A stretch of 64,000 bases of DNA from an uncultured Candidatus Saccharibacteria bacterium (GCA_947428935.1 CANENS010000001.1:29965-93964), one strand, 5' to 3'. Numbered from the stretch's first letter, positions 26,230 to 52,946 are shown. The notes: generated from the sequence alone by a model not told the origin. A program made the numbers and translations.

Positions 26230-26336
26230 ATTATAGAACACATTGTCTAAAAATCAAGGTTTTGTATAAATAATTTGTTCAATTTTAGGTATATTTGTGA
26301 AAATTGTTGTAAAATCAACAATAAAAGCCTTGACAA
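26230..26336. promoter_or_regulatory. Divergent promoter module copy A
   Basis: Leftward -10/-35, AATTTGTTCAATTTT box, TTGTTG..CAACAA inverted repeat, rightward TTGACA; 4 copies in the window. Confidence 0.7.
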
Positions 26337-26391
26337 AGGCCAACTTGTCGAAAAAAACTGGCCTGCCCTAGAGGGGCAGGCCAGAATCGTC

Positions 26392-27018
26392 TTATACGCC
26401 TTTTTCAACGGCCTTGACGAAGCCGCTGGAGTCGAAGCTTCTGTGGCTTTCTTGGGCGTAATGCGCCCATTGATACAGAAACTCTGGGTGACTACGCAAA
26501 TACTCGTGTTCATCCTGACGTATCACTTCAGGCCGCTCAATTGACACTTCTGTTACGCCACTAAGTTGGTTGTCTTCCCTGATGTGGAAAGGCGTGTCGG
26601 TTTTGATAACGATGCTCTGAACGCTATAATTATACTCATCGATCACGCGCCCGGCTAACAGCGTTCCTATTCTGCCAGCGAACAGACGGGCAGGGTCCGT
26701 GACTATGTAATATGGGTAATATGGTGAAAGATAAAAAACTATTTCGCTCCCAATTGCGAAATGCCCTTTCGGCCGTAAGTCGCAGAGAAGTGGTTTTTTC
26801 TCCGCTGGATCGATCATCTTCGCGAGTACCACCATTGTGTCAGTAGCTGTCTGGTTTTTCGCAACTTGTCCGGACAATAGATACCGCATGCACAGTTCTT
26901 TGAGTCCTTTCGGTTCAGCGCATCTGTGGTTTTCTGCGTCTAATCTGCGTTGCATCCAATACCGGTAAACCTTGCTAACGTTATTGTACCCCAAGGAAAT
27001 CAATTCTTCAGTCGGCAT
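26392..27018 (-). CDS. Orphan hypothetical protein; 5' end possibly frameshifted
   Basis: Open frame to 27063; RBS-backed ATG at 27073 is out of frame and stops after 17 codons, 2 nt before ATG 27018. Confidence 0.6.
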   Translation of the reverse strand: MPTEELISLGYNNVSKVYRYWMQRRLDAENHRCAEPKGLKELCMRYLLSGQVAKNQTATDTMVVLAKMIDPAEKKPLLCDLRPKGHFAIGSEIVFYLSPYYPYYIVTDPARLFAGRIGTLLAGRVIDEYNYSVQSIVIKTDTPFHIREDNQLSGVTEVSIERPEVIRQDEHEYLRSHPEFLYQWAHYAQESHRSFDSSGFVKAVEKGV

Positions 27019-27192
27019 TTTACAGATTTTCTTTTTTATTGATTGTTCTTGGCACCTTGACAACTTTTAACATAATATTTCCCCCTTTTGTTAAAATTTG
27101 AAGACGATTTTAATTTTCGATGCGGCAAAAAAACGCCACATTGTCTTTATATTGGCATAGATTGTGGTTCTTGCCAAGATTATTTTTGCTTT

Positions 27193-27394
27193 ATTATTAC
27201 AGTCTAGCTAGGCAGCGGAGGGGGAAGGCGTCCCAGCGATTATCGTTGTTAGACGGGTAGATGCCAGACGCATCGAAGGCGAGGTAGTATGCAGAACGAA
27301 CACCAGAAGAATTAGCTAGGGACGACCATCCGTAGCCGCTGATGCCAGAGACCCTCAAACGACCGTAATTAATATTGACGTACCCGCTGCGAAC
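27193..27394 (-). repeat. Orphan DGR-VR-like cassette 6 (intact, type A end)
   Basis: VRSGYVNINYGRLRVSGISGYGWSSLANSSGVRSAYYLAFDASGIYPSNNDNRWDAFPLRCLARL*; no start codon or RBS. Confidence 0.9.
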
Positions 27395-27486
27395 ACAAAT
27401 GGTTCTGAACGATAAGGTTTAAATGTCTCGAGGCTGTCAGATACCGAAAAATCTTAAAAATGGTATTAACGTTTTTTCAAAACGCC

Positions 27487-27802
27487 AAAAAGCCCCAGAA
27501 TTTCTAGGTAAGGGTGGGCATCACCTATACTCTTCTGAGGCTATTTGGCCCTATAACGCATCGTCGTTCGACTCCGGAGGTCCGGAAGCGCGACCCACCT
27601 CACACAGCTTGGGGCCCGCCGGTTATAGGGGTTGCTATGCTCTCGAAGCGACCCTAAAAGTGGAGGTAGTACTTATAATCTATGACCTTAGAGAAATCAT
27701 AGACCTTAGGGGTTTCAAAAGCACGCAACTTCTGATACTCTAATGAGTAACCAGAAATTTGTTGATTATTTAGGTGCAGTTGGAGTTAATTAACTCTAAC
27801 TA
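27487..27802 (-). ncRNA. Candidate ~315-nt structured ncRNA of unknown family
   Basis: Perfect TTGACA-17-TATAAT promoter (27809-27837), several hairpins, terminator-like end, no minus-strand ORF of 60 aa or more. Confidence 0.45.
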
Positions 27803-27830
27803 ATAAGCATTATAGCACACGGAGTATTAT

Positions 27831-28727
27831 ATGTCAACACTTTTTTCACACTTTTTTTCAAAAAACAACGAAATTCGACCCCAAAAGGCTGATTTTACAG
27901 AGGTGTTGAGCACTATTGCGGTTATGCCTAAAATGTTGTATTTTTACGGAAAAATGCCCCAAAATCGGCCAAAATCGGTCGCGATTGTGGGCACCAGAAA
28001 GCCTACTAAATATGGCTCGGAAATCGCTTATGATTTGGCCTATAAAGCCGCTAAACGTGGCGCGGTGGTGATCTCGGGACTCGCTTATGGTATTGACTCG
28101 ATTGCGCATCGCGGAGCTTTGGCGGCGGGTGGGGTAACGGTGGCAGTGCTGGGAACGCCGATTGACCAAATTTATCCGCGCGAGCACGAAGGTTTGGCGC
28201 AGGAGATCGTCGAAAAAGGCGGTATGGTGATGAGTGAATTGCCTCGAGGAGCGAAATATTATGCAAAAACTTGCTTTTTGCAGCGGAATCGGCTGATTTC
28301 GGGTTTGGCGGACGTGGTGGTGATCGTGGAGGCGGCGGAACGAAGTGGTTCGCTCAACACTGCGATGCATGCGTTGGAACAGGGGCGAGAGCTTTTTGCG
28401 GTGCCGGGCGATATTACAAGGGTGAATTCCAGAGGTTGTAATCGCCTGTTGGCTCAGGGCGCTGGGATTTATACTGAGCCAGAAGATGTGTTGGACTTGC
28501 TTTTTCCGCCGACTGAGGTGGCTCAGAGAGAGCAAAAGCGGCTGCTTTTTGGCGATAATTCGGGAGAAACTGCGATTTTGCGGGCGATTGCGGCCGGCGA
28601 GCGTGATGGCGAAAAACTGGCTGAAGCGGCACGGATGGAAGCAAGAATTTTTAATCAGAACATAACTATGCTAGAAATCAAGGGGCGAGTACGGGCTTTG
28701 GGTGCTAATCGTTGGTGTTTAGCATAA
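27831..28727 (+). CDS. dprA: DNA-processing protein DprA
   Basis: VAIVGTRKPT, ISGLAYGID, AVLGTPID, RNRLISGL, SGSLNTA; C-terminal winged helix. Confidence 0.95.
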   Translation: MSTLFSHFFSKNNEIRPQKADFTEVLSTIAVMPKMLYFYGKMPQNRPKSVAIVGTRKPTKYGSEIAYDLAYKAAKRGAVVISGLAYGIDSIAHRGALAAGGVTVAVLGTPIDQIYPREHEGLAQEIVEKGGMVMSELPRGAKYYAKTCFLQRNRLISGLADVVVIVEAAERSGSLNTAMHALEQGRELFAVPGDITRVNSRGCNRLLAQGAGIYTEPEDVLDLLFPPTEVAQREQKRLLFGDNSGETAILRAIAAGERDGEKLAEAARMEARIFNQNITMLEIKGRVRALGANRWCLA

Positions 28728-28819
28728 AAACTACAATAATGACCCTCATCGTGATTTCTTTCGTTTAAGACCACTATGACAAAACTTATGTCTAAAGATT
28801 AACTTAATCAAGCAATATG

Positions 28820-29017
28820 TACTGTCTATACTCGAGCAGCGGAGGGGGAAGCCGTACCAACGAGCATCGCTGTGCGATGGGTATATCCCGGCACCATAAG
28901 TACGGAAGTAATAGGCGATCGCCCTGTTAGTGCCATGAGACGTTGACGACCATATATCTGTGTTGATGCCAGGGCGCCCCAAACGACCGCCACCGACACT
29001 AACGTACCCGCTGCGAA
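28820..29017 (-). repeat. Orphan DGR-VR-like cassette 7 (intact, type B end)
   Basis: IRSGYVSVGGGRLGRPGINTDIWSSTSHGTNRAIAYYFRTYGAGIYPSHSDARWYGFPLRCSSID; begins just after a terminator. Confidence 0.9.
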
Positions 29018-29023
29018 TCGATG

Positions 29024-29049
29024 AAAAAGCTCCGGCCAGAGGCCGGAGC
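29024..29049 (-). terminator. Intrinsic terminator GCTCCGGCC-N3-GGCCGGAGC-TTTTT
   Basis: 9-bp perfect GC stem followed by T5 on the minus strand. Confidence 0.8.
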
Positions 29050-29283
29050 GAGCATTGCGTTTCGCCTAACTAAGCATTTGGGGCTGATCTTACAGTTAAA
29101 ATGCCCTTGTGACGCATTTTAAGGCTCCTTTGAGCGGTTTTCGGTTTGAAGAGCCGTTCAGATGTGGTTTTTAGGCTAAAACGCGGAGGATGCCTGCTAG
29201 GAGTGCATTTTTCGCCGTAAAAGCGCAGAGCGCCAATAAATAGCATAATAGCCTCAGAATGGCACCTGTGCTCTTCTGAGACA

Positions 29284-29895: not shown

Positions 29896-30040
29896 CTTTC
29901 CCCCTTTACAAAACTGCTGGCGAACCTGGAACTGCACCTGATGATTCCCTTTTACGCTTGAACCTTAAAGAAACCTTAAAAAATCAATTTTAGCTTAATT
30001 TGGGTCGCAATGAGTTAAAGGGCGTCACAAGGTGATTCTG

Positions 30041-31252: not shown

Positions 31253-31329
31253 TGGTGGTTCCTATTGGGCTCGAACCAATGACCTTACGAATGTGAATCG
31301 TACGCTCTAGCCAACTGAGCTAAGGAACC
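31253..31329 (-). tRNA. tRNA-Val(CAC)
   Basis: Cloverleaf GGTTCCT..TAGCTCAGTTGGCTAGAGC, loop TTCACAT, GGTTCGAGCCC, encoded CCA. Confidence 0.95.
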
Positions 31330-31862: not shown

Positions 31863-32015
31863 AAAATTTTGCAAAAATCCGGTTTTGCTGCGGATCGTGT
31901 CATAGGTATATAGCGGAGTTTCGCTGGGGCAGCAGTAAAAAAATGGTCAAAGCGTAATTCTCAAAAAATCGTGTAGAAAATAATAGTAAAAGAAAAGAAA
32001 ACTGTTATAATAGGG

Positions 32016-33074: not shown

Positions 33075-33078
33075 GATT

Positions 33079-36937: not shown

Positions 36938-38110
36938 CTAATACCTCGGCGCCAACTCAGACGTATAGACTTCGTTCAGTGTGGTGCCGTATTTGCCGGA
37001 CTGAGCATAAGCCCAAAGGTAAGCATCAGCGCGATAGTTAAACACTTCGGCTGGTTGAGTGCGGCTATTAGCGGCTCCTTTGAAGCTACCGCTAATAGCG
37101 CCGTTAGCCTCAGATCCGTAGCTACGGTTTAGCTTGATCCCATTTGCCACCACCGGTCCGTTGAAGATGAGCTGTTGATTGCACCCGCCATTGGTTCCGT
37201 CGGCACTCGTTCCGGTTTCGGTGTCGTCCTTACCGTTCACAAAGTCGTGGCAGGTGTCGATCGTTCCACCCACAATTAGCCAGGCGTCAATGCGCTTCAC
37301 GTTCTTAGAAATTTTGACATTACTGCTCGTGTACAAGCTCCCGTTCCAAAATGCGACTGATGGTTTTTTAGCGAGCGGCTTGCATGAAGACTTCATGATA
37401 TTCCAGTAGCTATTGTCTAGTGGCGTCCAAGTAAAGCCGTTGAGATTGGAAAAATCGCGTGAATTGATCTCGCCGATATAATACTGGTATTTAACCTCAC
37501 CAGATGTGCAATATTTATCGCCAAGTGCACCATCAGGAACTACTAGATCGCTAAAATTTGGCCAGTTTTGGGTATCCCAGCTTGGGCCAATTTTTGTGTC
37601 GATGTTTTCTTCGGAATATTTTTTATTGCAACTTTGAGCAGCTCTTGAGTTGTATACGGTGGCGTAAGGATCGTCTTTGGAATCGACGAGCTTCTTGATA
37701 ATATCTGGCGAATATGGCACCCCGACCGATACACCGTAAAGGATGTGTTGATATTCTGTAATGCGGTGGGTTGGGTAATATGGCGCGTCGGTGACCCAAT
37801 AAGCACTAGCATCTTCCCCAACATAGAGGGTGTCAGTCCCGTTTTTCCCGTCGATTTCTGATTTACTATATACTTCGTCGGAAGGATATGGACTGTCGGG
37901 GTTGCTGGGATTTTCGGGGGTTTGAGAATCATCCGAATCTTCCATAGTGTACGGACGTGTGATCATTGCACAGGCGCTAGTGTCAACTTGCTTTCGGTCC
38001 TCAATTAATGCATCCCATTGTTTGTAGCTGAACCAGTTAGTGTATACTTCTTGGTCTTTGTCCCAAGAACTTTCGTCTGGATATTCAACCGTTTTTTCGG
38101 CGATCTTCCG
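36938..38110 (-). pseudogene. 5'-truncated large surface/secreted protein (C-terminal fragment ending ELAPRY)
   Basis: Frame stays open 48 codons upstream of ATG 37966 and ends inside a -10 box; no signal peptide or RBS. Confidence 0.65.
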
Positions 38111-38217
38111 TTATAGCATGCTTTGCTTAAAAAGTCAATAGATTGAACACTAAATTTGTTCAATTTTGGTGGTTTTTGTGGGTTTTGTTGTAATTTTAAC
38201 AACAAAACTCTTGACAA
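38110..38217. promoter_or_regulatory. Divergent promoter module copy B
   Basis: Same boxes as 26230, 42115 and 52839; a cassette starts 14 bp after TTGACA. Confidence 0.75.
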
Positions 38218-38230
38218 GCGGCAGTATGAT

Positions 38231-38428
38231 TTTCACAACGGGTTCGTTAATATTCGTAGCGGTCGTTTGGGGTTCTCTAGCAGTAATGGTTACGGTTGGT
38301 TGTCATGGTCTTATACTGATATTTATTCTGCGTCATACCTTGGTCTCTATGCATCTGGCGTCTACTCGTCTGGTGGCAGTAGTCGCTGGGCCGGTTGTCC
38401 TCTCCGCTGCCTAGCTAGATAGTGATGA
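38231..38428 (+). repeat. Orphan DGR-VR-like cassette 8 (intact, type A end)
   Basis: HNGFVNIRSGRLGFSSSNGYGWLSWSYTDIYSASYLGLYASGVYSSGGSSRWAGCPLRCLAR*. Confidence 0.85.
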
Positions 38429-38504
38429 AATATATACGCGATGTATGTTCATTCAGTCTGTGTATTTTATAAAACTAAAGCAAAATCGTGCTATAATGGG
38501 TGAT

Positions 38505-39146
38505 ATGGAGATGAAACCGAGTTTTTTTGTCAAGCATCCTCTCGCGAAGGATTTGCTGAGTTTGGTCTTGTTTGTGGTCTGCGTGATCCTAGGCACCATT
38601 TTGTTGAATTCGTTTGTGTTTCGTTCGTACAATGTGGTTGGATCGAGCATGGAAAATACTTTGCAAGATAAGGATCGGGTGATTGTGAATCGATTGACGG
38701 TTTCTTGGTCGCATTTCTTGGGAAAAGAATATCAGCCCAAACGTGGCCAGATTATTGTATTTGCGAATGGCGAGGCTTCGGGAGCTTTGACTTGTGAAGC
38801 GCCAGAAGGTCAAGCCGACCAGTACATTATTAAGCGGGTTATTGCCTTTCCGGGGGAGCGCGTGGTGGTGCAGGATGGTAAGTTGACCGTGTATAATGAT
38901 GAGCATCCAGACGGTTTTTCACCTGACGACACGACGCGGGTGGACGAAAACAATGGGCCGAAGGAAGATACTTCGGGTGAGGTGGACATGGTGGTGCCAG
39001 AAGGTGAACTGTTCGTGGCTGGTGACAATCGTGAAGGCCAGCATTCTTTCGATTCGCGTTCTGGTTTGGGCACGGTGCCGTTTTGCCGTATCGTCGGTCC
39101 GGCTTCTTTGCGGATTTATCCGTTCAATAAAGTACGTTTTTTCTAG
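38505..39146 (+). CDS. lepB: Signal peptidase I
   Basis: VVGSSMENTL (Ser), YIIKRVIAFPGE (Lys), GDNR..SFDSR; start chosen 7 nt after TATAAT. Confidence 0.93.
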   Translation: MEMKPSFFVKHPLAKDLLSLVLFVVCVILGTILLNSFVFRSYNVVGSSMENTLQDKDRVIVNRLTVSWSHFLGKEYQPKRGQIIVFANGEASGALTCEAPEGQADQYIIKRVIAFPGERVVVQDGKLTVYNDEHPDGFSPDDTTRVDENNGPKEDTSGEVDMVVPEGELFVAGDNREGQHSFDSRSGLGTVPFCRIVGPASLRIYPFNKVRFF

Positions 39147-39231
39147 AGTCTGGCAATTTTATATGAATATTTGAGATTCAGTATTAAGAGCGTCTTTTGT
39201 TTTGATTATTGTGTGCTTCGAGAGCTTTTTT

Positions 39232-40680
39232 CTAATTCGTTCGATTTCGAGAGCTATCTTGATCTTGGTCGTTGCGGAAAGAAAAGCAGATTGGCGTACC
39301 GACGAAGGGATATTTTTCGCGAATTTTGCGCTCCAAGAAGCGTTTGTATGACCAGTGTAATAGCCCGAGATCGCGGCCATGGATGACGAACCAGGGCGGG
39401 CAAATATCGGTTTGGACCATATATTTCAGCTTGGGTCGAGTGTTCTTAAGTCCGGCGGGCGGATGTTCGATAATCGCTTCGCCGAGAATTTTATTTAGCT
39501 CAGAAGTTTTGATTTCTTGATGCCGAGTCTGGTCGATCTCCAGCGCTAGCTCGAATAGTTTGGTGACGTTTTTGCCGGTTTCGCTACTAGTGAGTAGCAC
39601 GGGAGCATAAGGCAAAAAGTTGAAATCGCGCTCTAAGTCATCCAGAATTTCGTCAATAGGCTTAATATCGGGATTAATTAAATCGGTCTTCGTCACAATG
39701 ACTACGATGCCTTTTCCGGCTTTTATGATCTGTCCGGCAAGGGTTTGGTCGAGCTTTGAGTGCGGTTCGGTGGCGTCGACCAGCAGTGCGCAAATATCGG
39801 CTTCTTCGATCGCGGCTAGCGTGCGCAGCGCAGAGAATTTTTCGATGCCGACTTCACGCTTGCCGGAACGGCGCAGGCCGGCGGTGTCGAGAATTTCGAG
39901 CGTACGGCCATGAAAACGCACTTCGGCACGGTTAACGTCGCGCGTAGTCCCCTGACGTGAGCTAACCAGGGCCTGCTGCTTTTTACCAAGAGTATTGAAA
40001 AGGCTCGATTTACCTACGTTGGGTCGACCAATCAAGGCGAGTCTTAACGGCTCCGTAATAGACTTGTCTTTTTCGTGATTTTCCGCGTCAGAATCTGCGC
40101 GCGCGGTTCGCTTCTGCGTTTCAAGACTTCCTTGAAGTTCATCGAAAAATACCGCGTTTTGCGTTTGCTGCTGATGGCTCAGATTTTTAAGGCCTAAATT
40201 CTGATAGATGGCGTTTTTCAGTTCTTTGATTCCCTGCCCCGTGGTGGCCGAAGTGCGAAAAGTCTCGCTGGGTTTGATACCAAAGCGCAAAAACTCTTCG
40301 CTAGGCAAGCTCTCGCCAAGATCGGATTTATTGAGTAAAAGCAAAACTGGTTTTTTGGATTTTAAGGCTTTTTTGGCGATTTCGCGATCTTTGTCGTTTG
40401 GATATTTCGAGGAGTCGACCGTGATCAAGATCAAGTCGGCGCTATTAATTGCGTCGGCAATTTGGTCTTGGATATTAGCTTCGAAATCATCGGTTGGGTT
40501 CTTGAGCCCAGCGGTGTCGATTAGTAAAAAACGATTATCGATACGGGCCATAACGTTGTCGCGCGTGGTCCCCTCTTCGCGTGCTACGATTGCGATATTT
40601 TTGCGCGCAAAGCGATTCAGCAGGCTGGATTTGCCGGCATTAGTTTGGCCAATCAAAGCTACGATGGGAAGTTTTTTCAT
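39232..40680 (-). CDS. der: Ribosome biogenesis GTPase Der (EngA)
   Basis: Two GTPase domains (GQTNAGKSSL, GRPNVGKSSL, DTAG) plus a KH-like C-terminus. Confidence 0.95.
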   Translation of the reverse strand: MKKLPIVALIGQTNAGKSSLLNRFARKNIAIVAREEGTTRDNVMARIDNRFLLIDTAGLKNPTDDFEANIQDQIADAINSADLILITVDSSKYPNDKDREIAKKALKSKKPVLLLLNKSDLGESLPSEEFLRFGIKPSETFRTSATTGQGIKELKNAIYQNLGLKNLSHQQQTQNAVFFDELQGSLETQKRTARADSDAENHEKDKSITEPLRLALIGRPNVGKSSLFNTLGKKQQALVSSRQGTTRDVNRAEVRFHGRTLEILDTAGLRRSGKREVGIEKFSALRTLAAIEEADICALLVDATEPHSKLDQTLAGQIIKAGKGIVVIVTKTDLINPDIKPIDEILDDLERDFNFLPYAPVLLTSSETGKNVTKLFELALEIDQTRHQEIKTSELNKILGEAIIEHPPAGLKNTRPKLKYMVQTDICPPWFVIHGRDLGLLHWSYKRFLERKIREKYPFVGTPICFSFRNDQDQDSSRNRTN

Positions 40681-40765
40681 GCTATAATTATAACATAATC
40701 CTCTCTTTTTTATAAATAATGATGTACGAATTTTTATACAATAAGGCTTATGTGCTATAATGGAA

Positions 40766-40916
40766 GTGCCTTATTCTATTCAAATATCATTTACGTTAAA
40801 AATGATTAGCTTTTAGCATCTTTTTCCCGATGCACTTGAGCGGCATCGCATAAGTAATCATCGGGAAGCGTAAATGGTTATGAATGGAATTAAGGCACCT
40901 TGCGGTGTCGCTTTTT
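40766..40916 (+). ncRNA. Candidate structured RNA (6S-like rod or attenuator leader) with terminator
   Basis: Nested stems GTGCCTTA/TAAGGCAC, ATTTACG/CGTAAAT and TTCCCGATG/CATCGGGAA after TGTGCTATAAT, then a hairpin plus T5. Confidence 0.55.
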
Positions 40917-40967
40917 GTATAAAAGGGTGCACAAGGTTAGATATTAAAACAATAGAGGAGAATATCT

Positions 40968-42014
40968 ATGTCAAAACATAAAAAAATACTAGCTCTGGGC
41001 CTAGTAGCTTTATGCCTAGCTTTTGCTGCTAGTGCGACCACAACAAATTCACAAACATATGCCTCCGACGCCGCACAGAGCGCCACTTATCAATCGGCGA
41101 TTGATTCGATTGCGGATTATAATAAAGTTGATGCGCTCAGTGCGGCGATAGCTGCTACGCAAAAACAGATCCCAGAAGCTATCATTTATTGGGATATGAA
41201 ATATGCTGTAGACGAGATTAAGGGCCATACTTGCGGTACGATGGACTTGCGTGGAGCATGGAATATTGGCTGTGGCGCCAGTGTTTCTCGCAATTTGCTT
41301 TATCGTTTAGCCTTGGCGGATGGCGCAATTGATGAGGCAAACTTCGATATCGGCTCAGAGTTCCCCGCGCCGTACAAAGACTATACTATGCGCGAGACGA
41401 TTACGCTGCTGAAGGGTAAATCCGTATATAATGACGATGCTGAGCTTAAAAAGTTTGTGGACGCAGCGGAGGCTATGTATAATCGTGGCGTCGACACTCT
41501 TCGCGCGGACCTGAAAAAAGTCGACCCGAGCTTAACGGATCTAGATTCGAAAAATGGCGATCAGCTAATCGAGACTTACCAGAATTTGCCCGCCGTCAAA
41601 GCGGGAACTTATACGGATTTTGTTGAAGCCTACTCCCGAGCCTATTCGTTCGATAACTATGTTAAATATTTGGGCGGTGAAGAAGCGGCTAGGGCTGAGT
41701 TTGTTAATCTTGATGAAGACGCAACGAAGCTCTACGGTAATTTAGTCGCTGAAGCTGTTAAAATCAAGCCGGATTTTACAGTTGATCTTTCCGGCGTTAA
41801 ACGGTTGAATCAAGAGGACGCTTCGCAAATTTCTGCAGAACTTCCACAGTCATCGGCGCCAGGTGCTCCTGATACGGGCGGGCTCGGTAGTGAAAATGGT
41901 TCGGCCAATATCGTAACGGTGGCGTTTTTAGGAATTGCGGTGACGGCTAGTGTTGGCGGAATAATTTATGTCGCAAAGCGCTATCTCTTTAGTCCACTTA
42001 AACGACGCAAATAG
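40968..42014 (+). CDS. Secreted protein with sortase-type anchor (APDTG-TM-KRRK)
   Basis: Signal peptide ending AFA; C-terminal APDTG, hydrophobic helix and basic tail; GAGGAG RBS. Confidence 0.8.
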   Translation: MSKHKKILALGLVALCLAFAASATTTNSQTYASDAAQSATYQSAIDSIADYNKVDALSAAIAATQKQIPEAIIYWDMKYAVDEIKGHTCGTMDLRGAWNIGCGASVSRNLLYRLALADGAIDEANFDIGSEFPAPYKDYTMRETITLLKGKSVYNDDAELKKFVDAAEAMYNRGVDTLRADLKKVDPSLTDLDSKNGDQLIETYQNLPAVKAGTYTDFVEAYSRAYSFDNYVKYLGGEEAARAEFVNLDEDATKLYGNLVAEAVKIKPDFTVDLSGVKRLNQEDASQISAELPQSSAPGAPDTGGLGSENGSANIVTVAFLGIAVTASVGGIIYVAKRYLFSPLKRRK

Positions 42015-42043
42015 AAAAGCGAGATAACCGATTTAATTTGCCT

Positions 42044-42066
42044 GCAGGGCCCCATAGGGGCCCTGT
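42044..42066. terminator. GC-rich hairpin CAGGGCCCC-atag-GGGGCCCTG
   Basis: Perfect stem just downstream of ORF 40968-42014. Confidence 0.65.
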
Positions 42067-42114
42067 TGTGTAGTCTGCCTGGTTTTGAAAGGTTTATCTT
42101 TGCCCTATCCCCCC

Positions 42115-42223
42115 ATTATAGCACACATCGTCAAAAAAGTCAAGATTTTGTATAAATAATTTGTTCAGTTTTGAGGACTTTTACGGGTCTTGTTGTATTT
42201 TTTAACAACAAAACCCTTGACAA
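42115..42223. promoter_or_regulatory. Divergent promoter module copy C
   Basis: Same boxes as the other copies; a cassette starts 28 bp after TTGACA. Confidence 0.75.
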
Positions 42224-42250
42224 GTATAACCATAAGGCTGCATGAAACGC

Positions 42251-42452
42251 GTTCGCAGCGGGTTTGTTGATGTTAGTAATGGCTACTTCAGGCGGTCTGG
42301 CCTTGATGGTAGCCAATGGTCATCTCGCACTGACCCTTCTAGTGATCGCTATGCGTATTATTTCTACTATGGCATATCAGATCTTAATCCATCAAATACC
42401 TATGTTCGCTACTACACCTTCCCCCTCCGCTGCCTAGCTAGACAGTAATAAT
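42251..42452 (+). repeat. Orphan DGR-VR-like cassette 9 (intact, type A end)
   Basis: VRSGFVDVSNGYFRRSGLDGSQWSSRTDPSSDRYAYYFYYGISDLNPSNTYVRYYTFPLRCLARQ*; in-frame ATG at 42242 but no RBS. Confidence 0.9.
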
Positions 42453-42464
42453 GTATAAGAAAAT

Positions 42465-44762
42465 TTATTCGGCGTCCTCGGCTTCAGCTTCCTCGGTCTT
42501 TTTACTAGTTTTCTTGCTGCTAGCAGTAGACTTTTTGGTTTTGGTGGTGGTTTTGCGCGTGGTTTTTGGTTTAGTGTCGGTAGTTTCTTCTGTACTCGTG
42601 CTCGATGTGGCGGCGGTTTCTGTTTTAGGCTTGCGTCCGCGTTTTTTGGGTTTTGGCGGTTCTTCGATTGTTTTTTCTGGCGTTCCGTTTTCTTCTGGCG
42701 TATCTTTTTTCTTTGTTTTACGCCCGCGTTTTGCCTTTGGTTTTTCTTCGGTTACAGTCTCGTTTTCCGAGAAAGCGGCTAGCAGAGCTGCATCTGTGTC
42801 TTCTTCGACGAATTCAAGCACTTCGCGTACCGATTCGACCATATCTTCGGCTTCGAGATTTTCCTTGCGGCGTCGTAGATGCAGGATACTGTCGATTAAG
42901 AGCCAAATCATGCAGATCGTTAAAGTACCGAGCGAAATGGCTCCTCCTAGTTTGGTAGCTGGGCTCAAGCCGTAGTAAACCGAGATTATACCGTTGATGT
43001 GTGCGGGGATTTGGATTTTGACCAGACCGCTCTTCTGATCCGGCGTGATAGTGAGCTGTTGATGATTGACTTCTGCGATGTATCCGGGGTAGTAGATAAC
43101 TGGTAGCTCGATAGTGGCGCCATTTTCGTTATTGGAAACTTGAATTGCATACTTCAAGCCGTCGGTTTGAATTACATGTATTTCGCCGTCACCTTCGAAA
43201 ATTGGTGCGCTAGGGATAAGATTTTTGGTTTCCGGCTTTGGACTTGTTTTTTCACTTTCTTTTTTCTTTTGCGGATTCAGTTCTTTAAACGAAGTCGAAG
43301 CTGCGGAGTCTTCCTGTTCTAGTATTGCAAAATCGTCGTTTTCAGTGTTTTCTTCGTTGAGGGGTGCGGTTGGCTGGCTTAATCTCTTATTGCTGCATAA
43401 ATAATCAGTAGTGGTGCGGTTTTCGCTGCAGAGTAGAGCTGTAGGAGCATAGAGTACGGAAGGGTCAAGCTGGCCATCCAATTCGTTGGAATTTTCGGAG
43501 ACTTTTGATTCTATTAGAAACGGTTGTACGCTTGCTATAGCGATAAGGCCAGCCATAATTGCGCTGATTTGTTGTTTTTCGATCGAAAGATCACGTAATA
43601 GATAATATATTACGTAACTAGTGATGACTGGGCTGATCACGGCGAAAATTTCCAGCAATTGCCATGGGAAGCGGATTCTGAGCAAGTCGGTCGGTAGAAT
43701 TGCCCAGGTCAGAATCGGTAACACTAAGAACAGCGCAATCATCATGATGACATAGAGGCTGGTGAGGAAGCTGCGTTCGTCTTCGTTGTTGATTTTTTTG
43801 CGGATAAACCAAAAGCCAAGGATGCCGAGCAAGCTGATCGAGCCGATGGTCAAACTGCTTTCGGTGTTTGTTAGGTCGAGCTCGAGTAGGTCGTTCAGGG
43901 ATAATCGATGGTGGTTGACAGTAGCGTTCATTCCGCCAATCATGTGCAGATAAGTAGTATCAAAGACGCCATAATGACCGTTTAGTCTAGCTTCGACGAT
44001 GGGCAACGTGAAAAAAGCGGTAAGGCCAATGATTCCGACCGCTGTAAGTACGATGCGCCAGAGGCTTTCGAGATTGAAGAGGTGGCGTACGTTCAATAAG
44101 AGAAAAAGAGCGCTAACGATCATGAAAAGTGCGGCGGAGAGGCTATGGGTTAAGATCAACCCTATGCCGGCTAAAATTAGGGTACGCACGGCATGTGGAT
44201 TGTGATTGATGAGGCGAAATAGCCCCAGTAACAAAAAGGGTGCAATCGCAAGGGCAAACAGTTCATCGATAGCGCCGCGCATGTAAAGGTTAGTCAAGAG
44301 ATAGGGGGTGGACATATAGAACATCCCAGCTAAGGCGCCAAGAACGTTTTTTTGGCTAATTTTGGTAACCGCGCGGCACATAGCGAGGCCGCTGCCGATT
44401 AGGGTTAAGGTGAGGATTAAATTCAATACAACGGGCCAGGAGCCGATGAAGAGATGTAGCGCTGCTGCGAGGTACGACGGCAGCGGCCCGGCAAATAGAT
44501 TAAAGCCGTAACCTGCGCCGTCTAGCGCATTAGGATTAGTCTGCGGCACGACTTGACCATTGCCCCAGGCGGCACTGGCGGTTCCGAGCTGCGTACTTTG
44601 CCAGCCAATGTCGTCTCCGCTTGGCATAATTGACAAGTTAGACCATATATTAATACTTAAGATTAGGCCGAATACAACAATTAGAATGTATGCCCATAAA
44701 TTCGTCAAAAATCTTCCCTGTTTTAAGTCCGTCGTAAGCTTTTCTGTCTCTTCCCTAATCAT
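42465..44762 (-). CDS. GT-C-like multi-pass membrane protein (YfhO/PTPS-related type) with charged tail
   Basis: GDDIGWQ, YGFNLFAGPLPSYL, PYLLTNLYMRGAIDE, RFPWQLL; many TM helices. Confidence 0.65.
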   Translation of the reverse strand: MIREETEKLTTDLKQGRFLTNLWAYILIVVFGLILSINIWSNLSIMPSGDDIGWQSTQLGTASAAWGNGQVVPQTNPNALDGAGYGFNLFAGPLPSYLAAALHLFIGSWPVVLNLILTLTLIGSGLAMCRAVTKISQKNVLGALAGMFYMSTPYLLTNLYMRGAIDELFALAIAPFLLLGLFRLINHNPHAVRTLILAGIGLILTHSLSAALFMIVSALFLLLNVRHLFNLESLWRIVLTAVGIIGLTAFFTLPIVEARLNGHYGVFDTTYLHMIGGMNATVNHHRLSLNDLLELDLTNTESSLTIGSISLLGILGFWFIRKKINNEDERSFLTSLYVIMMIALFLVLPILTWAILPTDLLRIRFPWQLLEIFAVISPVITSYVIYYLLRDLSIEKQQISAIMAGLIAIASVQPFLIESKVSENSNELDGQLDPSVLYAPTALLCSENRTTTDYLCSNKRLSQPTAPLNEENTENDDFAILEQEDSAASTSFKELNPQKKKESEKTSPKPETKNLIPSAPIFEGDGEIHVIQTDGLKYAIQVSNNENGATIELPVIYYPGYIAEVNHQQLTITPDQKSGLVKIQIPAHINGIISVYYGLSPATKLGGAISLGTLTICMIWLLIDSILHLRRRKENLEAEDMVESVREVLEFVEEDTDAALLAAFSENETVTEEKPKAKRGRKTKKKDTPEENGTPEKTIEEPPKPKKRGRKPKTETAATSSTSTEETTDTKPKTTRKTTTKTKKSTASSKKTSKKTEEAEAEDAE

Positions 44763-44930
44763 TCTGATAATTATATCATAGATAAAACTAGTTGTCATTA
44801 AAATAAGAGAAAATGTCATGATTTCATATATGTTGTAATTTTGTTTTAGTCTGAGTTATAGAAAAGTTTTGTATTTTGAAGAAGTGTGTTATAATGAAAA
44901 TGTTCTGAGAACGGATGCCTGTTGCAATAT

Positions 44931-45007
44931 GGTCTCGTCGTCTAGTGGTCTAGGACGCCTGGTTCTCATCCAGGAAATCGCGGGTTCGACTCCCGCCGGG
45001 ACTACCA
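44931..45007 (+). tRNA. tRNA-Glu(CTC)
   Basis: GTCTAGTGGTCTAGGAC D-arm, CCTGG-TTCTCAT-CCAGG anticodon arm, GGTTCGACTCCC, CCA; terminator hairpin follows. Confidence 0.95.
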
Positions 45008-46283: not shown

Positions 46284-46690
46284 ACCTGGGAAAATTAATT
46301 GTAATGACTGCTGATGCCTATCCCTGTATAATTAGTATACTTTCGCATTAAAGAAGCATGCTCACGTTTTAGAAAAGTATACTTTTGTAATAGAAAAATA
46401 TACTAAAATATATTTTTGTAATTTATCTCTGGGAAAATAGGGTTTTTACTCTCAAAAATAAGTTTACCCAAAATATAATCAAGTTTATTCCCGGTATAGA
46501 AAAGTATGCTTAGACTATAATGGAGTTTGCTCGATGTCTAAAAAATTTAGTTTTGCATTAGTAGGATGTACATCTGTAATATAAAGAAAGTCTATACGAA
46601 ATATGTTGACAAGGTTTTTTGGCGCAGTGAGTGCCCATTAAAATATGGCTTAAATGGTGAAAATACGTTAGGGGTTTTCGCTAGACTATT

Positions 46691-47974
46691 TCAATAGGAG
46701 ACTCCGCCGGTGCTGGGAATGGCCGCGATCCAAAGTTGACCCGGAGCGAAGCTGATTTTGCTTCCTGCTGTATCGCGAAATACGATTTGATCATCTTGAC
46801 TGTTCTTTTGCCAGGTACCTTCGATTATGGTGCCGTTTTGAAAAATGTAAGCGTTACCGCTACCGATAGTCTCGATCTGCTCATGATAACCGTCGCGCAT
46901 GGTATATTGTTCGACCAGCATAGCGACTACGGCGGTTGGAGTGATTTGGATGGCTTCGCCGCATTCAGTTTTGGTGGTGGGCTGTTCTAGCTCCGGCGCG
47001 CAGTCGTAAGATAAATGCGGGGCGCCGGTCGCAAATGAACGGGTATAATTATTTGATTCGGGGTTGTATTGATAGGCGGTGTTGTAATCCGGCTGTACAC
47101 CGAAATTAATCGAAAAAGCCTCGACGGTTGGAGTATCGAGGACGCATTCTTCGCCAGCAGCGATTTTTGCGGTGCAGCTTTGGCGCTCGGAGACGATATT
47201 GGCGGTGACATCTGGAGTGAGACGCGGAAAGGCTTTTGGCTCGGAGGCTTTGAAGCCGAGAGTGTTGTTGTAATTGGTGAGTTCTGCGGGAGAGGTGAAG
47301 AGATTATTCCAACTGCGACTATAATCGTTTTCGCGCCAAGCATAAGCTCCGCCGTCAACATCGAGATTGCGAAAATCACCGTTGCCGACTTCGGCGAGCG
47401 CTTCGTCAGAACCGCCAGCGTGGACAATTGTGCAATCGAACGGTGCATCCCAGGAGGTGTAATAAGGCCGCAGGGAGCGAATTGGGCCGATCGCGCTAAC
47501 GTCGGGGTTTTGAAAAACGGCGGCAAAACGTGTAATACCGCGCTCGGCGATCGCCTCAAAAACCACAGCGGCTTGACTGAGACCTGCCTGCGGGCGAGCG
47601 CCGTCGTCACTATTCGGAATTTGGATGCAAAAAGTGGGGCTAGAGTTGAGCGCGGCGTCGGTGATTTCGAGGCCAGTGAGGGTACTATAGATCGGCTCGA
47701 CGAAATCCGCTTTTGTCGCCTCTTGTTCGGTTTTCTCTTGATTTGCCAGGACGAAAATGATGGCGGCCGCAACGATCAAAGCTAAAATAATAGTAATCAC
47801 AACAATAATAGCTATTTTGCGCTTTTTAGGCATAGAGGTTTTTTCCTTCTTGCTGCTATTTTTGATCTTTTTATGTTGGCTATTCTTTCGCAGTTCTTCG
47901 TCGGTCAGTTCAAGGTTAATCGGTTTCTTGCTCGTACTTTTGGTTTTAGTATTCTTTTTTCCACCCTGACTCAT
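46691..47974 (-). CDS. DUF3048-like membrane-anchored protein
   Basis: ARPQAGLSQA..VFE..AERGITRF, GPIRSLRPY, HAGGS. Confidence 0.75.
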   Translation of the reverse strand: MSQGGKKNTKTKSTSKKPINLELTDEELRKNSQHKKIKNSSKKEKTSMPKKRKIAIIVVITIILALIVAAAIIFVLANQEKTEQEATKADFVEPIYSTLTGLEITDAALNSSPTFCIQIPNSDDGARPQAGLSQAAVVFEAIAERGITRFAAVFQNPDVSAIGPIRSLRPYYTSWDAPFDCTIVHAGGSDEALAEVGNGDFRNLDVDGGAYAWRENDYSRSWNNLFTSPAELTNYNNTLGFKASEPKAFPRLTPDVTANIVSERQSCTAKIAAGEECVLDTPTVEAFSINFGVQPDYNTAYQYNPESNNYTRSFATGAPHLSYDCAPELEQPTTKTECGEAIQITPTAVVAMLVEQYTMRDGYHEQIETIGSGNAYIFQNGTIIEGTWQKNSQDDQIVFRDTAGSKISFAPGQLWIAAIPSTGGVSY

Positions 47975-48148
47975 ATTGTACTCCACTTTAGTTTTTACTA
48001 TTATAACATACGCAATTTTGCGAAGCAATTTTACGGTTAAGCGTATTAAGAGATTTTGGGGTGCTTTTGCTGGATATTATGCGACCTTGATTGCGGTGCG
48101 TAGTATCCGAAAAGGGAGTAGATTTTATTGTGTCATACGACGCTTAGT

Positions 48149-48350
48149 TTTCGCAGCGGCAATGTTAATGTCGATAGAGGCTTATTAAGGAACATTGCTT
48201 ATTTTGGCTATGAATGGTCGTCACAAACTACTGTACTCGACGATGGTCCTGTTTATAGCCTTGGTTTTAATAAGTCAGATGTCTTTCCGTCCGATAGCCA
48301 TGATCGTTGGATTGCTTCCCCCCTCCGCTGCCTAGCTAGACAGTAATAAT
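48149..48350 (+). repeat. Orphan DGR-VR-like cassette 10 (intact, type A end)
   Basis: FRSGNVNVDRGLLRNIAYFGYEWSSQTTVLDDGPVYSLGFNKSDVFPSDSHDRWIASPLRCLARQ*. Confidence 0.9.
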
Positions 48351-48455
48351 ACAAGGTAAAAGCTTAAGTTAATTTTATACTTCGAAATTTATCCCGTGCG
48401 TTAATGATAGATGCAAGTAATATATGTATCAAGTTGTAATCGTATGTGTCACGTT

Positions 48456-49895: not shown

Positions 49896-50061
49896 AGTAG
49901 TATTATACCATAGAAATTTAAGATGCCCTTAATTGATAAGGCATTATATCCAAGAGTCCCTGATTAGGATGGTTAATCCATAAAGTATCGGTAAAAGTTG
50001 CGCCTTCACAGTGGTATCATAGCACAAGAACGAGTTCTATCTATAAGATCTCGATTTTTTA

Positions 50062-50436
50062 TCAACTTCCTTCATTTATTAAGCAGCTAAGCCACATGAT
50101 GATTCCGATTATGGTTGGTGTGAGGCAAAGGATGATTCCTGCGATGAGGACGATATTCGTTTTTCGGTTAAAATCGTTTTTGCGAAGCCGAATATGCTGC
50201 ACTATTCCGATTAAGGCAAAAAGGATTCCGACTGGTATATGTATAGTGATAAACGAAACTGCGAAAGAAAATGCCATACCGAGCCCGCCAATTGGGCTGA
50301 AAGCGAACCCCAGCACAGTTAATAAGGTGTTAGCCACGCCAACAACGAATGTGGCTTTAACATGATTTGGTGTTTCTGTAGAATTTCCGTTCTGCTTTGG
50401 CAATAATTTTTCTTGATTTCTGTTTTCAGTTTTCAT
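50062..50436 (-). CDS. Small membrane protein (3 TM)
   Basis: 124-aa ORF with hydrophobic helices, directly downstream of the 750-aa gene. Confidence 0.65.
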   Translation of the reverse strand: MKTENRNQEKLLPKQNGNSTETPNHVKATFVVGVANTLLTVLGFAFSPIGGLGMAFSFAVSFITIHIPVGILFALIGIVQHIRLRKNDFNRKTNIVLIAGIILCLTPTIIGIIMWLSCLINEGS

Positions 50437-50447
50437 AATAATTTTAT

Positions 50448-52700
50448 CTATAATGATACTACGATATTGCGAAGCTGCTTCTTAGTGAGGTTGTCGTTCT
50501 TGGAGCTGATTTTGTAGAGGATGCCGGCGTTGACCCAAGCGGCATCAGAGCCTGAGATGTAGATTGTGATCCCCTGTTCGTGGGTGGTGGAATATTTGTC
50601 GCCCCAAGTCGGTTTGACGAAATTTCGCTCAAGCGCCACGCTATCCCATGAGGATTTTTCTTCGATCAGGATGAAGCTGGCGTCGTCGGGCCCTTTAAAA
50701 TTCATGCTAATTTTTCCATCTTCAGAAGCAACATCGCCCAGCGAATAACCGCGTGGAACATAGGATGGATAGGAAGCTTCGATGCCGGTTTGCATAGCAG
50801 CGACGCGTACGGAAATATCGGGCATATTGGAACTTACCAAGTAGAAAAAGGCACCTACGCAAGCTGTGGCACAACCAAAAGCGATTAAAAAACGTTTGCC
50901 ACCGCCTTTTTTGTGATTACGTTCTACTTCTCTTTTCTTTTGACTGCGGACTGAGTCGGCTGGCGAATCATTCATGGTGGCGACGGAACGCATAGTTTGC
51001 CGCAGCGCGCGTTCACGATCGGCAGCGGTCTTCTGACCCGTCGATCGCTTCTTAGTAGCCGTCGGACGCTGCATACTTTTTGATTTCGTCGGTATTGCTT
51101 GGTTGCGAGCAAGTATAGCTTGACGATTGTTAGCTGATAATGCCAGATTAGAATTATTATTGATGCGGCTGGCTGCCATGGCCTTGGCAGAGGAACGTGT
51201 AACTTTTGCGGCTGCGCGCGTGGCGCCGCGCGAGAGAGTAGTTCTATTGGGTTTAGTAGCTGGCTTTGGATTATTTTTCACACTGACTGAAGTTGTTTTT
51301 GTATTAGCGGCAGCTGCTTCTTTGCGCTCGATTGCTTCTTTGACGCTGGTCGATTTCATGGCGACACTAACGAATTTATCGATTGTATCGCTTAATTCTT
51401 GAATTTCTGGCGCGGTAGATTCAGTCCGAATTTTTTCTGAAAAAGCCTTGAGTGAAGTGATTTGTTCGGCGATATCGTTCGGATCGTTGGCTAGATGAAT
51501 GGCAGCGATCGCATCGGCAGCGGTGCGCGCGATTTCTTCTACCGAGGATGGAGAATGTTGGGCGTGACCGATCGCGAGATTAAGATTGTTCGGCTCACTT
51601 TCGTTTGGTTCAGACATGGCATATCCTTGATAATTATTACCATATTCAGCTACTGACGCGCCGAGGCTAGCAGCAGCGTAATCGGCGGCAATATTCATTG
51701 CGAGTTCGGATTGATCCATTACATGCTGACTATTTTCTGTGGCTTCTGAAACGGCGACCGCTGCGGCTGGAGCCATGTCCATAACGTCGCTAGCGGCTAC
51801 TCCGTTCATAGGTGTATAGTATTCTGATGTTTCGGATGTTGGCAGATTGCAAGTACTTTCGTTTGGAGTAGTAGGATCTTGCATTGAATTATTAGTAAAG
51901 GTGCTGTCACCAATTTGCTCGCTGTAGTAGCTATCTTTATTGTAAGCGTTTTCTGTCGGTAGGGCGTCGCCTGGGGTTTGCATTGCGTAACTGGAGTAAT
52001 TGGAGTAATTGGGGTTTGTTGCTTCAGGAGTCGGAACCTGGTGTGTCATCCTGGCTGCACTCATAGTATAGGCCATGGCTTCGGCTTCGTGGTCGATGCT
52101 GGGGGTGTCTAGTTCTGCTGGTGTGCGAGTTTCGGATCGGGGCGCCGAGGCTTGCGTTTCTGGGCTTGTAATGGATGGAGGGGCTAAGGATGGAGCAGTA
52201 AGCGCAATCGGACTTGCTGCCTCGTTTTGGTCTTGAAAATTATCGCCCCTGGTTTGCGGTAGGTCAAAATTATTTTGTGCTTCTTCGGATTTCTCGTTTG
52301 AGGTGAAATCGATCGTAATACTCTCTTTTTGGCTATCCTCTCCTCCCATTTCGATAACGTTAGAAAAAACTGTGATTGGTTTCGAGGTTGTTTTGTTCTT
52401 TTTGATTTTTGGCGATTTTGCTTTTGCTTCTTGTAGAACACGGTTTTTAGCGCGTTGGGCGGCTTCCAACTCAACACGGCGGACGCCTAAATTGACTAAA
52501 CGCGAAGGAGCGCTCTGAACAGCTTTGATGGCTGCAGCTTTTTCGGCTTCTCGCGCTGCCTCTTCGATGGCCAGATTGCCTGGACGATGGACATAACGCC
52601 GATCCAGCGTCATTGAAGCCTGGGTTAAACGATGAGTAGCTGAACTAGAGCGACCAACTTCATAGTTTTGTTTACTCATTGATTTTTTTGATTCCTCCAT
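50448..52700 (-). CDS. Large low-complexity protein with TM and DUF4367-like C-terminal domain
   Basis: TLDRRYVHRP N-terminus; S/A/T/E-rich middle; PSYVPRGYSL..AAWVNAGILY C-terminus. Confidence 0.75.
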   Translation of the reverse strand: MEESKKSMSKQNYEVGRSSSATHRLTQASMTLDRRYVHRPGNLAIEEAAREAEKAAAIKAVQSAPSRLVNLGVRRVELEAAQRAKNRVLQEAKAKSPKIKKNKTTSKPITVFSNVIEMGGEDSQKESITIDFTSNEKSEEAQNNFDLPQTRGDNFQDQNEAASPIALTAPSLAPPSITSPETQASAPRSETRTPAELDTPSIDHEAEAMAYTMSAARMTHQVPTPEATNPNYSNYSSYAMQTPGDALPTENAYNKDSYYSEQIGDSTFTNNSMQDPTTPNESTCNLPTSETSEYYTPMNGVAASDVMDMAPAAAVAVSEATENSQHVMDQSELAMNIAADYAAASLGASVAEYGNNYQGYAMSEPNESEPNNLNLAIGHAQHSPSSVEEIARTAADAIAAIHLANDPNDIAEQITSLKAFSEKIRTESTAPEIQELSDTIDKFVSVAMKSTSVKEAIERKEAAAANTKTTSVSVKNNPKPATKPNRTTLSRGATRAAAKVTRSSAKAMAASRINNNSNLALSANNRQAILARNQAIPTKSKSMQRPTATKKRSTGQKTAADRERALRQTMRSVATMNDSPADSVRSQKKREVERNHKKGGGKRFLIAFGCATACVGAFFYLVSSNMPDISVRVAAMQTGIEASYPSYVPRGYSLGDVASEDGKISMNFKGPDDASFILIEEKSSWDSVALERNFVKPTWGDKYSTTHEQGITIYISGSDAAWVNAGILYKISSKNDNLTKKQLRNIVVSL

Positions 52701-52838
52701 CGTGTTTTTGCTTGCTACTATTATAACTGCAAGCGCGTTCGAAAAGCAAGGGGCTTTTCGATTGATTTGCCGCGCAGGCTGTGGAAAACTTTAGTTTGTT
52801 TTTTTGAAAAGAAAGTTTTATTTCGACCCTATCTTCTC

Positions 52839-52946
52839 ATTATAGCACACTTTTCATTTTTTGTCCAGACTTCGTACACTAAATTTGTTCAGTTTTGGTG
52901 GTTTTTCGAGAAAATGTTGTATTTTTAACAACAAGAGTATTGACAA
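52839..52946. promoter_or_regulatory. Divergent promoter module copy D
   Basis: Same boxes as the other copies; a cassette fragment starts 23 bp after TTGACA. Confidence 0.7.

Follow-up and report, generated by a model that had tools for sequence, protein, structure and literature searches.

A recurring divergent control region beside promoterless, lectin-like cassettes in a Candidatus Saccharibacteria genome

Why should a control region of ~110 bp recur four times among housekeeping genes, each time with a complete promoter facing left and, facing right, what looks like the upstream half of one? The case comes from an uncultured Candidatus Saccharibacteria bacterium (GCA_947428935.1 CANENS010000001.1:29965-93964), of which one stretch of 64,000 nucleotides, hereafter the window, was analyzed. 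The recurring region is called here the module, and some of its copies adjoin members of a family of short, start-less coding repeats, called here cassettes. The reading we prefer, to which we assign a probability of about 0.4, is that the module is not a gene but a duplicated divergent control region, one that may border accessory blocks joined at recombination-prone cassettes and whose rightward promoter would have lost its -10 element and its gene. The observations behind it are the module's anatomy, the missing -10, a parallel in phages, the unrelated genes to the left, presence/absence polymorphism among strains, and strain breakpoints that fall on cassette ends. The arrangement hints at an undescribed recombination system, without amounting to proof of one.

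Module copies and their two promoter halves

An initial annotation of this DNA had proposed a four-copy module made of a leftward promoter, a box, an inverted repeat and a rightward TTGACA. The repeat search found exactly that, with all copies on the plus strand and 62-75% identical to the reference copy in the repeat-family search. Chance is excluded: box A (AATTTGTTCARTTTT) has four exact matches in the window, where 1.0 would be expected even allowing two mismatches, and the palindrome TGTTGTA-N4-8-AACAAYAA has four exact matches against 0.00 expected. From left to right, each copy consists of the leftward -10, its -35, box A, a spacer of ~18 nt, the palindrome, 4-6 nt, and TTGACA(A). The inverted repeat together with the rightward TTGACA is the distinctive part.

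26230-26339, plus strand: module copy 1, with leftward -10 at 26231-26236 and -35 at 26252-26257 (both read on the minus strand), box A at 26272-26286, inverted repeat at 26305-26324 and rightward TTGACA at 26330-26335
38111-38220, plus strand: module copy 2, with box A at 38153-38167, inverted repeat at 38186-38205 and TTGACA at 38212-38217; its leftward promoter (-35 at 38138-38133, -10 TATAAC) would drive a 342-aa gene at 36938-37966 on the minus strand
42116-42225, plus strand: module copy 3, with box A at 42158-42172, inverted repeat at 42191-42211 and TTGACA at 42217-42222
52840-52949, plus strand: module copy 4, with box A at 52882-52896, inverted repeat at 52915-52934 and TTGACA at 52940-52945; its leftward promoter lies upstream of a 750-aa gene at 50448-52700 on the minus strand

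A fifth, more diverged copy is found on Logan contig L020, from a cassette-bearing organism of another species; its leftward promoter, palindrome and CTTGACAAG are exact, and box A is kept in part only. These five are all the copies open to study, as pattern scans for the module returned two matches in a genome contig collection and six in a metagenome contig collection, all of them chance matches inside unrelated sequence. Outside the motifs, the spacers are shared among copies in mosaic fashion, module 1 with module 3 and module 2 with module 4, so the copies are duplicates related by common descent rather than binding sites that evolved independently.

Homologous promoter regions upstream of non-homologous genes are known in prokaryotes as putative mobile promoters, or as cases of promoter reuse. 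The module resembles them in that a promoter-bearing segment of ~110 bp recurs, in four copies within one genome, 5' of unrelated genes, with conserved spacers that indicate copying. It differs in being bidirectional, in having a second promoter that lacks its -10 in every copy, and in its physical tie to a family of cassette repeats. Around the module copies no shared terminal repeats were seen.

The leftward half reads as a regular sigma-70-type promoter in all four window copies: TTGATT-16-TATAAT, TTGACT-17-TATAAC, TTGACT-17-TATAAT and TGGACA-17-TATAAT in copies 1 to 4. The TGC that usually precedes the -10 in this genome is present in copies 2, 3 and 4, with TTC in copy 1, and the promoter scan credits copy 3 with 11/12 consensus positions plus TG. 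A scan for TTGAC-16/18-TATAAT with at most one mismatch places the genome's standard promoter at 24 sites in the window, most of which share TTGACTttttt...tgtgcTATAATgg. Judged by its sequence, the leftward half is this standard promoter in complete form, and it would transcribe whichever lineage-specific gene happens to lie to the left. The proteins so encoded (161/170, 342 and 750 aa, plus 268 aa in L020) show no mutual similarity by BLASTP and no match in Pfam or PHROG. Copy 3 has no such gene, its leftward promoter facing a terminator and the 3' end of a convergent gene for a 348-aa protein. The standard promoter, TTGACTttttt-N-tgtgcTATAATgg, is very uniform across the window, often with GGATAGGG at the transcript start, as at 12954(+), 16103(+), 25509(-), 42143(-) and 55138(-). 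The leftward leaders of modules 1, 3 and 4 (26160-26225, 42030-42110 and 52745-52835, minus strand) share a hairpin followed by GGCAAAT(T/C)nAAT, which module 2 lacks.

On the right side, the best hexamers 16-18 nt past TTGACA differ from TATAAT at 3, 3, 3 and 2 positions in copies 1 to 4, the best candidate being TATGTT at 18 nt in copy 4, and none of them qualifies as a -10. The promoter scan likewise finds no rightward promoter at modules 2 and 3. That the rightward TTGACA lacks a -10, with a cassette boundary in its place, had been part of the initial annotation, and it gains force from viral sequence. The pattern TGTTGTA-N4-8-AACAAYAA-N3-8-TTGACAA occurs on 64 viral contigs (IMG/VR loci L025-L088), and on 2 when the right arm is scrambled with its base composition unchanged. 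TATAAT, with at most one mismatch, lies 16-18 nt after TTGACA in 57/64 of the viral matches (43/48 distinct sequences) and in 0/4 window copies. A palindrome just 5' of a -35 is therefore a real and recurrent promoter architecture, of which the window copies hold the upstream half only. The contigs look like genuine phages, encoding thymidylate synthase, HNH endonuclease and ATPase; against known phages they give no nucleotide match and remote protein matches only. Phage and module agree in pattern over the module's right half; the phage copies differ in having a TATAAT in 57/64 cases and a downstream gene, and in having neither box A nor a cassette. The comparison supports reading the rightward TTGACA as the putative -35 of a promoter that lacks its -10.

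Cassettes and their junctions with the module

Ten cassettes of ~195 nt each lie in the window, on both strands, at 6039, 6362, 9323, 16341, 27189, 28821, 38232, 42251, 48149 and 53047. Their peptides follow the pattern xRSGYVN..GYGWSS..AYYLAF.ASGV.PS...RW..FPLRCLAR(Q/L)*, and their ends are conserved (5' GTTCGCAGCGGGTA, 3' CCCCTCCGCTGCCTAGCTAGACAGTAATAAT). They are promoterless, with stop codons a few codons 5' of every one and no conserved start. Most stand apart from any module.

38232-38434, plus strand: cassette after module 2, peptide ..NGFVNIRSGRLGFSSSNGYGWLSW..PLRCLAR*, no start codon
42251-42459, plus strand: cassette after module 3, peptide VRSGFVDV..FPLRCLARQ*, with the conserved tail TAATAATGTATA
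52970-52976, plus strand: cassette 5' stub TTCGCAG past the TTGACA of module 4; 85 nt then separate the stub from an inverted cassette running 53259..53065
53047-53259, minus strand: the inverted cassette beside module 4, complete, peptide VRSGYVHINSGRLWASG..FPLRCLARQ*, its 3' end facing the module and its 5' end abutting the enolase promoter
27189-27394, minus strand: cassette without module, upstream of the gene at 26392-27018 (minus strand)
6362-6478, minus strand: cassette without module
9323-9463, plus strand: partial cassette without module
16341-16523, minus strand: cassette without module
28821-29018, minus strand: cassette without module
48149-48355, plus strand: cassette without module

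The initial annotation had a cassette following directly on TTGACA in three of the four copies. A cassette 5' boundary does lie there in three, at 14 nt in copy 2 (TTCACAACGGGT at 38232), 29 nt in copy 3 (TTCGCAGCGGGT at 42252) and 24 nt in copy 4 (TTCGCAG at 52970), but full cassettes follow copies 2 and 3 only, since copy 4 has just the 7-nt stub and then the inverted cassette. To the right of copy 1 stand a terminator hairpin and the 3' end of the convergent gene 26392-27018(-), and no cassette. By a rough estimate, ~9 cassette 5' ends on 128,000 strand positions would give ~0.002 per 30-nt interval, and at least two hits in four copies would then have P < 1e-4; the link between modules and cassette 5' ends is not random. 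A box A-like site, AATTTGTTCAGTGTG (2 mismatches), opens the stretch 5931-6239 on the plus strand, where it has no leftward promoter and is followed by two palindromic aTGACyAAyrGTCAGTAATTTTA repeats and then by the cassette 6039-6239.

The arrangement at module 4 looks like an inverted version of that at copies 2 and 3. The TTCGCAG at 52970 and the CTGCGAA at 53252-53258 flank the inverted cassette body as inverted repeats of 7 bp each. As for the traits of an invertible switch or shufflon, the repeat is 7 bp long, the window contains no recombinase gene, and the opposite orientation was not seen, contig L021 breaking at the cassette.

Where do the cassettes come from? Five cassette peptides gave no match to Pfam or NCBIfam, even at E = 10 and E = 1, and so none directly to Fib_succ_major (PF09603). 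An exhaustive search with a cassette profile returned 7,082 proteins, among them multi-domain Fib_succ_major proteins, each of whose domains matches the cassette over its last third. The profile finds P0188 (E ~1e-36) and P0242 (~1e-24), both of which score 92-165 bits on PF09603; the units of P0172 map to positions 127-187 of the 187 in that model; and BLASTP aligns a cassette with P0188 at 41-43% identity at the end of each of three domains. Through such intermediates, the cassettes can be recognized as copies of the ligand-binding, C-terminal third of a lectin-like domain, Fib_succ_major. Six-frame translation of the window reveals no motif of the N-terminal two thirds (..WMxxNL.., CPxGWRLP).

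A full-length recipient gene ending in this lineage's tip was found neither in the window nor in a word-indexed search of 5.8 billion proteins, where all 50 matches to the cassette profile are 67-114 aa long; full PF09603 proteins are related to the cassettes only at ~40% identity. Because public assemblies of this lineage break at repeats, such a gene could be missing from them. Other profile matches are open reading frames (ORFs) made up entirely of 2-10 cassette units in tandem, some of them frame-shifted. P0171, P0173, P0178, P0180 and P0181 consist solely of such units, some with a shift to +1, by which YFVRSGY reads ISSVVA. These ORFs are cassette arrays in other genomes, not single expressed proteins.

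The frame is open in 9/11 cassettes, all lengths are multiples of 3, and identity by codon position is about equal at 0.59/0.65/0.60: the frame persists, and the amino acids vary freely within it. When cassettes are paired, the top pairs with one exception have their longest exact match at the 3' end, CTTCCCCCTCCGCTGCCTAGCTAGACAGTAATAAT, over 24-40 nt that reach past the stop codon, and cassettes of different species share it too. Cassettes of related genomes occupy other sites and have a lineage-specific tail of their own. Mismatches within each of the three closest pairs, 34-40 in number, fall on all four bases with no bias toward adenine.

Several other identities for the cassettes were tried and rejected. 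A structured RNA might be closed by a stem of GCAGCGG and CCGCTGC, but Rfam recognizes nothing in the window besides two tRNAs, and this stem is broken without compensation in cassettes 38232 and 16523; the complementarity of the ends follows from the codons, and divergent copies do not compensate. Small protein genes would have a start, and the cassettes have no conserved start or ribosome-binding site, the database "proteins" of 67-114 aa beginning at chance ATGs. Template or variable repeats of a diversity-generating retroelement (DGR) are contradicted by the lack of a reverse transcriptase and of adenine bias. DGRs act on C-type-lectin-fold tips, and Fib_succ_major (PF09603) proteins are reported to be among their targets (PMC11661182). 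The cassette likewise covers the C-terminal, variation-tolerant part of that domain family, but it differs in having no reverse transcriptase in the window, differences not confined to adenines, and ten copies per 64 kb instead of one template. Integrons are no better a fit, as the window has no integrase and its cassettes are scattered rather than arrayed, and are gene fragments rather than whole genes.

A close likeness is to silent-cassette gene-conversion systems, of which Neisseria pilE/pilS, Borrelia vlsE/vls and the Mycoplasma genitalium MgPa repeats are examples. The ten copies here are promoterless and start-less parts of the variable portion of a surface-protein domain, with a sharp conserved block at the 5' end and one of 24-40 nt at the 3' end that extends past the stop; their open frames, equal divergence by codon position, and tandem, partly frame-shifted arrays elsewhere are further points of likeness. 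They differ in that no expression locus was found and in lying dispersed, one at a time, among housekeeping genes. Orphan C-terminal cassettes of polymorphic toxins, the rhs-CT and cdiA-CT orphans, are also start-less C-terminal fragments with a conserved 5' homology block that can be recombined onto a full-length gene; the window's cassettes, in contrast, encode no toxin domain, come without immunity genes and do not cluster behind a main gene.

Some further cassette arrangements were observed. On L001 (10013-11698), two otherwise different cassettes share an exact tract of 166 nt, inverted and 1.25 kb apart, with a tRNA, a third cassette, a DUF2726 gene and another tRNA between them; the tract may reflect a recent conversion or duplication, the segment could invert through it, and it is the one hint of mosaic variants within a population. 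Palindromes directly 5' of cassettes are seen in the window (the two aTGACyAAyrGTCAGTAATTTTA repeats, at 5960-6030) and likewise in L019 at ~2130-2200, and a perfect 13-bp palindrome, AAAAGTTGATAGTaACTATCAACTTTT, lies between two head-to-head cassettes at 12300-12330 of L010. The partial cassette in the dcw cluster (9300-9463), between mraW and ftsI, has an extended -10, cttGGTATAAT, 14 nt upstream.

Strain and species comparison

Sister contigs L006-L009, whose Der protein is 94% identical to that of the window, have module 2 with no substitution in its core and 2-3 substitutions in the 209 nt of its cassette, so the cassette gives no sign of rapid turnover. The idea that module 2 is better conserved than its flanks was rejected: strain divergence is concentrated in der (91%), and lepB is 99.4% identical.

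The same contigs lack an entire block of the window.

40753-42431, strand not assigned: strain-specific block of 1.68 kb, holding an extended -10, the gene for the 348-aa protein (secreted/anchored), a terminator, module 3 and the body of its cassette

In its place L006-L009 have 28 bp ending in the 5' stub TTCGCA, which is joined to the cassette 3' end GCCTAaCTAGACAGTAATA; the breakpoint reads CCGCT|GCCTAGCTAG. A second breakpoint is seen in L023 and L024, which are 99.6% identical to 46362-48339 and diverge exactly after CTAGCTAG of the cassette 48149-48355. Both continue immediately into an island, at 1978-5577 in L023, whose UvrD-type helicase and OLD/TOPRIM AAA ATPase make up a Gabija-like defence pair. 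In a relative with 78% Der protein identity, the ortholog of the window's 261-aa gene adjoins lepB; the 342-aa gene, module 2 and its cassette are therefore an inserted block of ~1.8 kb. In relatives at 78-80% identity the regions 5' of lepB and of enolase measure 60-105 nt, with neither module nor cassette in them. Cassette ends thus coincide with three independent breakpoints, and in these alignments the accessory blocks on which modules ride end at a cassette.

Two further ideas were considered and dropped. Insertion of a cassette between the -35 and the -10 of an old lepB or enolase promoter is not supported. To the right of the cassette each gene does have an extended -10 promoter that lacks a -35, but so do the genes of relatives at 78-80% protein identity (Der, enolase), whose intergenic regions are compact and free of the palindrome. 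A circular form of the 1.68-kb block, whose joined ends would make a promoter, was rejected because joining would leave 24 nt between TTGACA and TATAAT.

The 8-bp sequence ATAAGGCT occurs both at 40745-40752, the left junction of the 1.68-kb block, and at 42233-42240, just before the cassette, where a target duplication, microhomology or chance are all possible. It is the only flanking duplicate seen around modules or cassettes, which do not show, copy by copy, the terminal inverted repeats and target-site duplications of a miniature inverted-repeat transposable element (MITE). Logan contig L093 (3722-4458) matches the window as far as 42319, in the middle of the cassette 42251-42459, and continues with a fragment of an FtsX-like permease gene; the junction is either a real rearrangement or an assembly chimera.

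Readings of the module

Under the preferred reading of a duplicated control region, the rightward promoter would have lost its -10 and its gene to a cassette 5' end, by recombination there. Accessory gene, module and cassette would from then on have formed one unit, later duplicated or relocated and bounded on the right by the cassette 3' end. The conserved cassette ends would serve as the recombination junctions, and the rightward half would be a relic instead of a working element. Several observations weigh against it. Copy 1 and the L020 copy have no full cassette on their right. The viral contigs with the palindrome promoter show no detectable tie to this bacterium and no cassettes, and the resemblance may be convergence on a common factor-binding site. 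A Pfam scan of 40 ORFs in the window found no gene for a recombinase, integrase, nuclease or reverse transcriptase. Finally, neither the inverted repeat nor TTGACAA deviates in any of the five copies, that of L020 included, and such exactness over two species argues for a present-day function, not a relic.

Because the palindrome and TTGACAA are so exactly conserved, three rivals stay alive. The most serious, though we hold it unlikely, is that the module is a regulated promoter region and nothing else: box A, the palindrome and CTTGnCAAG would be sites of one transcription factor, the leftward lineage-specific genes its regulon, and the cassettes merely neighbors that accumulate in intergenic DNA. 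The leftward promoter is intact in all five copies at a fixed spacing from box A and palindrome, as this would require, and the palindrome forms only weak hairpins (-3.9 to -8.5 kcal/mol as DNA), which suits protein-binding sites and not terminators; the two copies without a cassette on the right also fit. However, copy 3 has no leftward gene to regulate, the shared non-motif spacers point to duplication rather than convergent sites, and same-strand cassette 5' ends within 30 nt in 3/4 copies are very unlikely by chance; the box A-like site at 5931, moreover, pairs with a cassette yet lacks the leftward promoter. Improbable in our judgment is a cis-acting recombination enhancer, in which the rightward half drives non-coding transcription into the cassette, or the palindrome forms a cruciform, and either stimulates recombination of the adjacent cassette. 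Comparable roles are known for the G4/small-RNA promoter upstream of Neisseria pilE and for the inverted repeat adjacent to Borrelia vlsE. Such an enhancer would explain why the inverted repeat and TTGACAA are kept across species, and why palindromes or -10-like boxes occur directly 5' of cassettes in several forms: the module palindrome, the TGAC-N-GTCA pairs (5960-6030 and L019), the perfect palindrome of L010, and the TATAAT 14 nt before cassette 9323. The transcription would start from non-canonical -10-like hexamers (TATGAT, TATAAC, TAAATT) that lie 2-7 nt after TTGACAAG. Against this reading, the promoter geometry is inconsistent, the cassette of module 2 is nearly unchanged between sister strains, and the majority of cassettes have no module to enhance them.

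The initial annotation had raised a further possibility, namely that promoter and variable tip lost a constant gene body from between them, or can take one up there. In its full form the module would be a docking promoter: a mobile body with the -10, the start codon and the N-terminal part of the lectin would insert between TTGACA and any cassette, or leave, and so express one of many tips. A -35 with its palindrome, exact and without a -10 in five copies of two species, would fit an empty dock; the sharp cassette 5' boundaries recur as breakpoints (TTCGCAG| at module 4, TTCGCA| in L006), and the cassettes represent a region of the fold that is diversified elsewhere, PF09603 proteins being reported DGR targets (PMC11661182). 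The comparisons nevertheless speak against it. At module 2, L006-L009 keep module and cassette with nothing inserted; at module 3, sister strains lack the whole module and have no gene there instead; and when orthologous loci were compared for filled and empty states, no filled state appeared in L006-L009 or L091-L092. Among the copies seen, none has an intact rightward -10 with a full gene, and no long gene ends in this lineage's tip. The window offers neither the N-terminal Fib_succ_major motif nor a recombinase, and among the 5.8 billion proteins none above 114 aa matched the lineage-type cassette profile. Moreover, with anything from 14 to 29 nt between TTGACA and cassette, no single inserted body could give all sites a 17-nt spacer. 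We regard docking as the least probable of the three.

A broader proposal can be built on the cassettes, and we think it doubtful: small-genome bacteria may diversify lectin-like (Fib_succ_major) surface proteins by recombination with no retroelement, using possibly 100 or more tip cassettes per genome (extrapolated from 10 in 64 kb) as donors and as portable junctions for block swaps, with the module as the cis site that marks expression or exchange of tips. If the cassettes are recombination donors or junctions, this would be a retroelement-free way to vary a lectin-fold binding tip, at work in ultra-small bacteria that depend on hosts and whose choice of host to attach to probably lies with their surface proteins; with the module, a first cis element would be linked to a system of this kind. 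The standard promoter, the phage-type half promoter and the cassette ends at strain breakpoints provide concrete sites for testing, and these repeats and cassette ends are also why short-read assemblies of this lineage fragment at these places. The literature searched yielded no paper tying Saccharibacteria or Patescibacteria to cassettes, gene conversion or antigenic variation of such proteins, and unrelated papers only for the palindrome sequence.

The setting is an ordinary one. The window is a housekeeping stretch of a small genome, with the dcw cell-division cluster, topA, dprA, pth, prfA, prmC, htrA, lepB, der, gltX, enolase and tilS, a gene content that would suit a Patescibacteria/Saccharibacteria-like organism, and an Rfam scan of it returned two tRNAs and no other match. 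Two metagenome-assembled genomes at NCBI, GCA_949463425.1 and GCA_951800845.1, are 100% identical to 37268-45007. At 17061-20621, on the minus strand, the window encodes a 1186-aa protein with a TrwB/VirD4-type coupling-protein domain, and its GC skew is positive throughout.

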